Below, piece by piece: positions 28,118 to 28,760 of a stretch of DNA of 64,000 bases; the first letter of the stretch is position 1; the number at the start of each line of letters is the position of its first letter. The translations under genes and the position numbers were made by a program. Location: NCBI RefSeq assembly GCF_003334315.1, contig NZ_QOWR01000003.1; one strand, given 5' to 3'. The notes under the pieces were generated by a model. It was not told where the DNA came from. It ran no database searches and was given only the letters and a program-made list of their open reading frames with translations. This stretch comes from Escherichia coli. GTDB lineage: Bacteria > Pseudomonadota > Gammaproteobacteria > Enterobacterales > Enterobacteriaceae.

Positions 28118-28146
28118 ATGCCGGGATTTATTCCCGGCATTTCTGA
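28118..28146 (+). terminator. Intrinsic terminator after tsx
   Basis: ATGCCGGGA-TTTAT-TCCCGGCAT hairpin followed by a T-rich tract, 9 nt past the tsx stop. Confidence 0.8.
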
Positions 28147-28170
28147 TTGTTAACAACGTGTGCTTTGTTC

Positions 28171-28270
28171 ATGCCGGATGCGGCGTAAACGCTTTGTCCG
28201 GCCAACAAAAGCACGTAAATTCAATATATTGCTGAAATAACGTAGGCCTGATAAGCGTAGCGCATCAGGC
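28171..28270. repeat. Two REP elements (BIME)
   Basis: ATGCCGGATGCGGCGTAAACGCTTTGTCCGGCCAAC and GTAGGCCTGATAAGCGTAGCGCATCAGGC between tsx and yajD. Confidence 0.8.
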
Positions 28271-28285
28271 AATTTTACGTTTTAA

Positions 28286-28633
28286 TCACTTCTTCTTGTT
28301 CATCATCGCTTTCAGGTCAGCGAATGGGTTGTACTTCGCTTCACCGACATCTTTCTGCGCATCTTCCCCTGCGATAACGGTCGTACCATACTGATCCGCT
28401 TCGGTATATTTCGAATGCTCATGATCGTGGCAATAGAGACACAACAATTCCCAGTTACTGCCATCTTCCGGGTTATTGGTATGGTCGTGATCAATGTGGT
28501 GAACGGTAAGTTCACGCAGGTTGGAATAAACAAACTCGCGGGAACAGCGACCGCAGACCCACGGATAGATTTTTAATGCTTTTTCGCGATAGCCGCTTTC
28601 TAACCGCGCATAGTTTTTTGGGATGATAGCCAT
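28286..28633 (-). CDS. yajD: HNH-endonuclease-family protein YajD (function unknown)
   Basis: 115-aa ORF with CxxC...CxxC zinc knuckle and HNH signature (CGRC ... HHIDHDHTNN ... CLYCHDHEH). Confidence 0.9.
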   Translation of the reverse strand: MAIIPKNYARLESGYREKALKIYPWVCGRCSREFVYSNLRELTVHHIDHDHTNNPEDGSNWELLCLYCHDHEHSKYTEADQYGTTVIAGEDAQKDVGEAKYNPFADLKAMMNKKK

Positions 28634-28709
28634 GAAAAGTTACCTGGATGAAATGTAGGGTTACGCGCAGTTTCCCAAGATGCGGGGATTTTCGCAATCT
28701 CCATACATC

Positions 28710-28737
28710 AAAAAAATCCCGATCTTCTGACCGGGAT
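28710..28737 (-). terminator. Intrinsic terminator after secF
   Basis: ATCCCG/CGGGAT hairpin followed by T7 on the minus strand, about 25 nt past the secF stop. Confidence 0.7.
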
Positions 28738-28760
28738 TTTCAACATCAACGGGAACTTGA

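Follow-up and report, generated by a model that had tools for sequence, protein, structure and literature searches.

What does YajD do? Strong constraint, a predicted HNH catalytic site and a conserved C-terminal peptide in a small Escherichia coli protein

The 64,000-nucleotide stretch of Escherichia coli DNA analysed here (hereafter the window; contig NZ_QOWR01000003.1 of RefSeq assembly GCF_003334315.1) carries yajD, one of the 'y-genes' of E. coli K-12 still without a function, and poses the question of what task falls to a bare HNH-nuclease domain that is among the most constrained small proteins of its neighbourhood. The open reading frame (ORF) begins with ATG and has 115 codons, translated as MAIIPKNYARLESGYREKALKIYPWVCGRCSREFVYSNLRELTVHHIDHDHTNNPEDGSNWELLCLYCHDHEHSKYTEADQYGTTVIAGEDAQKDVGEAKYNPFADLKAMMNKKK, and its DNA is identical (100%) to the gene annotated in RefSeq as 'HNH nuclease YajD'. 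The protein scores 210.3 bits against the NCBIfam equivalog NF008448, 'YajD family HNH nuclease' (curated cut-off 87 bits), with residues 2–113 falling on positions 2–113 of the 113-position profile; residues 27–75 span the whole of Pfam HNH PF01844 (E = 1.5e-12, model positions 1–47 of 47). Matches at these levels lie well outside what chance would give. The original prediction, of a standalone HNH-family protein of 115 amino acids, is borne out by these results, and the two CxxC pairs (CGRC and CLYC) and the HHIDHDH and HDHEH histidines that it read were confirmed codon by codon on the DNA. Its placement of the gene between secDF and tsx agrees with the RefSeq annotation of the identical DNA, in which the order is tsx(+), yajD(−), secF(−), secD(−), followed by yajC-tgt-queA (−). 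Gene and family are already known and annotated: E. coli YajD is the founding member of NF008448, PRK11295 and the UniProt entry 'Putative HNH nuclease YajD', from which it shows no difference, and the family name is itself a prediction. What is added here is the strength of the constraint, the spread of the family across phyla, the lack of a partner gene, an assignment of catalytic residues, and the recognition of a conserved C-terminal peptide.

The analysis establishes YajD as a chromosomal, minimal zinc-ribbon HNH protein (His-Me finger, ββα-metal) in which the fold and the full catalytic signature are both present. In an alignment of 39 diverse family members drawn from several phyla, residues C30, L42, V44, H45, H46, N54, G58, N60, W61, E62, L64, C65, C68, H69 and H73 are invariant, and R16, C27 (at least 90% conserved), R32, F34, T43, H51, P55, D57, S59 and E72 are near-invariant. 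Conservation within the HHIDHDH stretch is uneven, with H45 and H46 never replaced, H51 nearly so, and D48 and H49 variable. Judged by motif layout, the pairs C27/C30 and C65/C68 bracket the HNH motif in the manner of the [CxxC]2 zinc-ribbon subgroup, and the putative general-base position H46, the structural Asn at N60 and the presumed ligand position on the helix, H69, are all invariant, as in HNH/His-Me finger enzymes. Structure prediction and comparison with characterised nucleases, which the original prediction had proposed, point the same way: the modelled fold agrees with that of the zinc-ribbon HNH domains in ZRANB3, McrA, GVE2, Cas5-HNH and Gme, which share the ββα-metal arrangement. 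Residues 24–49 (positions 28487–28564), PWVCGRCSREF..L..VHHIDH, mimic the classical C2H2 pattern. Weak matches of the YajD family profile to C2H2 zinc fingers (Sall4 at E = 4e-4, and others) were judged a coincidence of composition and pattern, because the invariant Cys4 set fits an HNH zinc ribbon.

Around this core, YajD has a build that the original prediction did not describe: a basic N-terminal helix (residues 1–22, isoelectric point 9.8), an acidic catalytic core (residues 23–76, 5.7), a variable acidic linker (residues 77–99, 4.05), and a conserved basic-hydrophobic tail (residues 100–115, 10.0). The linker ranges from 26 to 46 amino acids across the family. The tail motif, T[HY]xPFAxLxx[LM][LM]KKK, is found in 256 of 379 intact family members and is seen across phyla in the 39-member alignment. 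A smaller subfamily, which includes Nitrospira members, is without the tail, ends in LLGDYL instead, and carries G[LW]I in place of PW[VI] ahead of C27; the two differences may mean that tail and core are coupled, or may just have been inherited together. Models of orthologues from the AlphaFold database depart from the AlphaFold2 (AF2) model of YajD by 9–14 Å root-mean-square deviation over the full length. A crude test for a dimer, in which two copies were fused through a linker and modelled with AF2, gave a predicted template-modelling score (pTM) of 0.35 and a predicted local distance difference test (pLDDT) of 53, with pLDDT values of 33–42 in the tail. The C-terminal peptide is a candidate docking or regulatory peptide.

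How strongly the protein is held can be read from its divergence. Of 5426 complete E. coli genomes, all but one (5425) carry a yajD coding sequence, with one copy in each, and the earlier view of yajD as a core gene therefore stands. Between E. coli and E. albertii, synonymous divergence (dS) is 0.53 and non-synonymous divergence (dN) 0.007 (dN/dS ~0.01); against other Enterobacterales, the proportion of synonymous differences (pS) reaches 0.7–0.9, that is, saturation, at a dN of 0.02–0.05. The combination of saturated synonymous and very low non-synonymous divergence supports the coding status of the gene. Since synonymous sites are saturated, the 92–97% identity of YajD to its counterparts in Salmonella, Kluyvera and Pseudocitrobacter reflects purifying selection, and recent horizontal transfer is ruled out as its cause. 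In genomes with the same locus, conservation of YajD equals that of SecD, SecF, YajC and NrdR and clearly exceeds that of Tsx, YajI and RibD. An exhaustive HMMER scan (E up to 1e-3) returned 640 representative clusters at 50% identity, whose cores are 55–75% identical to the E. coli protein; members were named in Vibrionales, Alteromonadales, Pseudomonas, Chromatiales, Xanthomonadales and Magnetococcus, and full-length members occur also in Nitrospirota, Myxococcota and Hydrogenedentota. This profile of distribution and constraint marks yajD as a housekeeping gene rather than as a nuclease of the defence or selfish kind.

Mobile elements contribute little to the distribution. Among 50,697 phage records there is no full-length YajD relative, and the partial matches that occur are at most 51% identical and cover only the HNH core. 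Plasmid matches fall chiefly on large Pantoea plasmids (61 Pantoea plasmid records), where a yajD 94% identical to that of E. coli lies among ordinary metabolic genes on a plasmid of 130–180 kb; on pPag1 of Pantoea vagans, for instance, it is flanked by an RND efflux gene and a 2-phosphosulfolactate phosphatase gene. The remaining plasmid records probably represent whole or fragmentary chromosomes deposited under the plasmid label, because the E. coli records measure 4.8–4.9 Mb and the Salmonella record is chromosomal in gene content. With phage matches partial, and plasmid matches either mostly from Pantoea or probably chromosomal, a phage or plasmid origin of yajD was ruled out. Two ORFs join YajD to other sequence. 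In the metagenomic P0128 (190 amino acids) the YajD core follows an N-terminal segment ending in LLSPFDPIVWDR, which we take to resemble the C-terminus of YcaQ/AlkZ-type crosslink glycosylases; a genuine fusion, a frameshift that joins neighbouring genes, or a chimera of the assembly could each account for it. The ArgG–YajD joint in P0132 is a chimera, and such artefacts occur in this data set.

For the function of YajD, we give about an even chance to the reading that it is a housekeeping, partner-dependent HNH endonuclease that uses one metal to nick DNA or to cut it in a structure-specific way, probably where the DNA is damaged or branched. This reading draws on the intact site, the lack of a DNA-recognition domain, the acidic core, the tethered conserved peptide, a peroxide phenotype of double mutants, and the occasional presence of ruvAB, recQ and ligA as neighbours (the last two described below). 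In the mechanism that we propose, a structural zinc would be held by C27, C30, C65 and C68, and one catalytic divalent metal by H45 and H69, probably together with H73; with His ligands throughout, such a site suggests that Mn, Ni, Zn or Co would be preferred to Mg. The general base would be H46, which closes strand β1, activating a water for attack on the phosphodiester and leaving a 5′-phosphate and a 3′-OH, and N60 would brace the hairpin. The zinc, metal-ligand, general-base and N60 roles are assigned from established knowledge of His-Me finger enzymes. Because YajD possesses no separate DNA-recognition domain and its core is net acidic, the protein alone would be expected to nick damaged or branched DNA weakly and without sequence specificity, with the C-terminal peptide tethering it to a conserved cellular partner, or gating it through one.

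Comparison with known HNH enzymes helps to place these assignments. T4 endonuclease VII (PDB 1EN7/1E7D) is the sole PDB nuclease reached by sequence (phmmer E = 0.008, YajD residues 15–73 against 8–66), and the match takes in the H-x-D-H-D-H stretch as well as the N-terminal helix of YajD, which aligns to helix H1 of the phage enzyme. The Asp40/His41 dyad of T4 endonuclease VII aligns to D48/H49, which are not conserved in the YajD family; the catalytic pair is therefore assigned to H45/H46. Membership in the endonuclease VII family (PF02945) was rejected, given a Pfam E-value of 3, the variation at D48/H49, a YajD without the C-terminal domain, and a poor fused-dimer model. Residues H102, H103, N118, H127 and H131 of ColE9 form an all-His H-H...N...H-x3-H series spaced nearly as H45, H46, N60, H69 and H73 of YajD. 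Colicins E7 and E9 differ from YajD in having no Cys4 zinc ribbon and in being secreted toxins with immunity proteins. Homology to the colicin DNases was likewise rejected: hhalign returned a probability of 0.1 against a ColE9 motif peptide, so that only the residue spacing is similar, and phmmer with YajD found no colicin in the PDB at E-values up to 10.

A protein of similar size for comparison is the Geobacter protein Gme HNH (Gmet_0936, PDB 4H9D), a standalone zinc-ribbon HNH protein of ~100 amino acids that is 17% identical to YajD and belongs to a different family. The spacing of the two sites is the same, with D53/H54-N68-N77 of Gme corresponding to H45/H46-N60-H69 of YajD, and C73xxC76-N77 to C65xxC68-H69 (PMC3765158). 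The metal-ligand positions differ, being Asp and Asn in Gme and His and His in YajD; Gme also has neither an acidic linker nor the conserved C-terminal peptide, and it dimerises, whereas the fused two-copy model of YajD gave no confident dimer. Gme is a weak, Mn-dependent nickase that prefers DNA with apurinic/apyrimidinic (AP) sites and is, alone, no Holliday-junction resolvase (PMC3765158). A second parallel concerns the tail. Human ZRANB3 relies on a C-terminal peptide beside its HNH domain for recruitment and stimulation of the nuclease through PCNA (PMC5481773). The ZRANB3 HNH domain with its C-terminal APIM (PDB 5MKW) is 19% identical to YajD and forms part of a large SNF2 ATPase, in contrast to the bare domain of YajD; the YajD tail does not fit the APIM motif, and the likeness is one of architecture only. 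Nor does the tail fit QL[SD]LF, which we take to be the bacterial β-clamp motif. A bolder extension, which we regard as quite unlikely, would make YajD the nuclease end of a widely conserved bacterial pathway, its tail docking on a highly conserved hub (such as the sliding clamp, SSB, RecA or RNA polymerase) that recruits the nuclease and switches it on, as the counterpart of ZRANB3 HNH-APIM-PCNA at stalled forks. If true, this would explain why a protein of 115 amino acids, whose deletion alone gives no phenotype, changes as little across phyla as the Sec translocon.

Genome context was considered for the best 80 loci, all from Gammaproteobacteria, and through 12 look-ups of distant YajD members; no conserved neighbour of yajD emerged from either set. 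Among the loci examined, the secF-yajD-tsx arrangement is confined to Escherichia, Salmonella, Kluyvera and Pseudocitrobacter. In Citrobacter, yajD lies between a chitinase-like gene and yeaC-msrB-gapA, and its neighbours in Yersinia, Pectobacterium, Vibrio, Photobacterium, Shewanella, Colwellia and others are all different. A Chromatiales lineage (loci L085–L088, 6001–6842) has yajD overlapping by 4 nucleotides a downstream gene for a 148-residue, ArfB-like protein with an RF-1 domain, with an NYN-domain gene next and a phospholipase-D/cardiolipin-synthase-like (cls) gene preceding yajD. In Hydrogenedentota (L094/L095, 2858–5414), ruvA, ruvB, an unannotated ORF of 118 amino acids and yajD run head to tail with short gaps, which may represent an operon linking YajD to branch migration, and one distant lineage has a recQ<>yajD...ligA arrangement. 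None of the arfB, ruvAB or recQ/ligA arrangements recurs in the related loci examined, so that yajD is a solitary unit; these adjacencies were treated as one-off cases, and genome context was set aside as a guide to function.

The ruvA-ruvB and recQ/ligA neighbours are nonetheless hints of a role in DNA metabolism, as is the hydrogen peroxide sensitivity of the Salmonella cbpA/yajD and ychN/yajD double mutants (PMC3878590). Several observations weigh against a partner-dependent DNA endonuclease. The repair-gene neighbours are isolated, other loci have unrelated genes, and there is no consistent partner. The Salmonella yajD single deletion behaves as wild type in growth, in its response to temperature, salt, pH and H2O2, and in mouse virulence (PMC3878590). 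A full-text literature search found no biochemical study, no report of a biochemical or genetic function, and no measured nuclease activity of any YajD family member, in agreement with the original statement that no activity had been demonstrated, and no LexA-type box was seen by eye upstream of the gene. The metal-ligand assignment comes from motif spacing and a predicted model and not from a solved structure, and the tail, whose placement differs between models, has a putative role only. Finally, a purely metal-binding protein would also keep conserved histidines.

The last point leads to the first of the alternatives, in which YajD has no catalytic role and serves to bind metal or as an adaptor on an HNH scaffold (like Legionella DotN/IcmJ), or else acts as a metal buffer or sensor; selection would then retain the conserved His and Cys as ligands, not for catalysis. 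We consider this unlikely, insofar as the catalytic set, including H46 and N60, is invariant across phyla with exactly the spacing of active HNH enzymes; furthermore, a metal-regulator box was not seen upstream, and metal-homeostasis neighbours were not found among the loci examined. A second alternative has YajD acting on RNA, or in ribosome or RNA quality control, rather than on DNA. The Chromatiales overlap with an ArfB-like gene, next to an NYN-domain gene, speaks for this, as does the slow evolution, a common trait of proteins in contact with the translation or transcription apparatus; set against the absence of the arfB link from the related loci examined and from the best 80 gammaproteobacterial loci, and against structural relatives that are all DNA nucleases, it appears very unlikely.

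An anti-phage defence nuclease or restriction-like enzyme, one of the two roles raised in the original prediction, is more improbable still. The structural similarity to McrA, Cap5, PtuB and retron HNH effectors is consistent with such a role, and there is a domain-level similarity to ZorE of the Zorya system (27.5 bits, positions 213–269 of 282). However, the PADLOC matches involve just the HNH domain within far longer proteins, yajD is accompanied by neither sensor nor partner genes, its neighbours being secDF and tsx, and a single-copy core gene under strong purifying selection contrasts with the patchy, fast-evolving pattern typical of defence genes. Membership in a PADLOC defence system was accordingly rejected, the ZorE match being at domain level only and the neighbours including no defence genes; with neither a full-length PADLOC match nor a full-length phage match, the suggested defence role is unsupported, and of the two options originally raised a DNA-repair-type role is the more plausible. 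An origin of yajD as a free-standing HNH gene of the homing type, whether now domesticated or selfish to this day, is scarcely credible: its site differs among Escherichia/Salmonella, Citrobacter, Pantoea (on a plasmid), Yersinia, Vibrio and others, and it appears to travel with its own upstream block, but exactly one copy per E. coli genome, the lack of a full-length relative in the 50,697 phage records, synonymous sites saturated between genera (hence no recent spread) and a dN/dS incompatible with a decaying selfish element place it outside the phage and homing endonuclease class on residence, copy number and divergence alike.

The DNA around yajD (Table 1) bears on how the gene is expressed and how it has moved. 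The original prediction had REP (repetitive extragenic palindromic) elements on both flanks, which holds for the 3′ side and fails for the 5′ side. The yajD–tsx spacer (28145–28285) occurs at a median of 20 places per E. coli genome, with a REP consensus at 28173, and folds with a z-score of −5.5 (Rfam matches to REP-derived RNAs fall below threshold), whereas the secF–yajD spacer (28634–28760) is unique, at a median of 1 place per genome. The first REP stem begins 15 nucleotides past the yajD stop codon. REPs this near a stop codon reportedly affect translation termination and mRNA stability. In a Salmonella enterica record of chromosomal content filed as a plasmid (L082, 5786–5893), an Ldr-family type I toxin gene separates yajD from tsx, at the point occupied in E. 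coli by the two REPs.

Table 1. Positions in the window of yajD, of the segments of its product, and of flanking elements.
Feature	Position	Strand	Basis
yajD coding sequence, 115 amino acids plus stop	28286..28633	−	ORF list, RefSeq identity, NCBIfam NF008448, Pfam HNH
Basic N-terminal helix, residues 8–22, conserved Y15-R16-E-x-A-L-K	28568..28612	−	AF2 helix 8–22; R16 near-invariant
First CxxC of putative Cys4 zinc ribbon, C27-G-R-C30	28544..28555	−	Read from sequence
H45-H-I-D-H-D-H51, end of strand β1	28481..28501	−	Alignment; AF2 strand 42–46
N60 (Asn of H-N-H), in invariant block G58-S-N60-W61-E62	28454..28456	−	Alignment
Second CxxC, C65-L-Y-C68, then H69-D-H-E-H73 on predicted catalytic helix	28415..28441	−	AF2 helix 66–82
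Variable acidic linker, residues 77–99	28337..28405	−	Low conservation; pLDDT down to ~61
Conserved C-terminal peptide, residues 100–115, KYNPFADLKAMMNKKK	28289..28336	−	Family motif T[HY]xPFAxLxx[LM][LM]KKK
yajD 3′ untranslated region with two REP hairpins (~28167–28203, 28245–28275)	28145..28285	−	Repeats, consensus, fold
secF intrinsic-terminator-like hairpin upstream of yajD	28713..28740	−	12-nucleotide arms, then T-run
Hairpin between tsx and yajD, 11-nucleotide arms, 5-nucleotide loop	28116..28142	.	Plus-strand terminator scan; perfect inverted repeat
Conserved upstream block, promoter-like, GATTGCGAAAAT...GGGAAACTGCGCGTAACCCTACATTT	28651..28699	−	Cross-genus conservation

The hairpin downstream of secF is the only terminator-like element in the secF–yajD spacer, and separates yajD from the secDF transcript. 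The hairpin that lies where tsx and yajD converge is bordered by an A-run and, at its opposite end, by a T-run, with UUUUCAU following it on the minus strand, and looks like a bidirectional intrinsic terminator for both. Two papers have used yajD as a model for transcription pausing and termination, which indicates that the gene is transcribed, and one of them validated a yajD terminator in vitro (PMC12207403); we infer that the validated terminator corresponds to this hairpin. Upstream of the gene, a block of the form GATTG..AAA...GGA[A/C]ACT...TAACCCTACATTT is kept in E. coli, E. albertii, Cedecea and several Enterobacter species (loci L002, L005, L012, L013 and L015) despite different flanks, and yajD seems to have moved together with its own promoter region. 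The block is a candidate promoter; a simple scan upstream of yajD found no sigma-70 consensus promoter, inspection by eye showed no LexA-, Fur- or Zur-like box, and the block fits no recognised regulator consensus.

That a nuclease-fold protein is universally kept with its site intact, and yet has neither a partner gene nor an obvious phenotype, implies that it performs some maintenance activity, or enters into a regulated interaction, that escapes present screens. The family offers direct experimental handles in the predicted catalytic residues H45, H46, N60, H69 and H73, in the putative Cys4 zinc site, and in the C-terminal peptide, which could serve as bait for a partner. If YajD is indeed a partner-gated repair nuclease, it would be a new component of bacterial genome maintenance; if not, it would be an ordinary annotated orphan.
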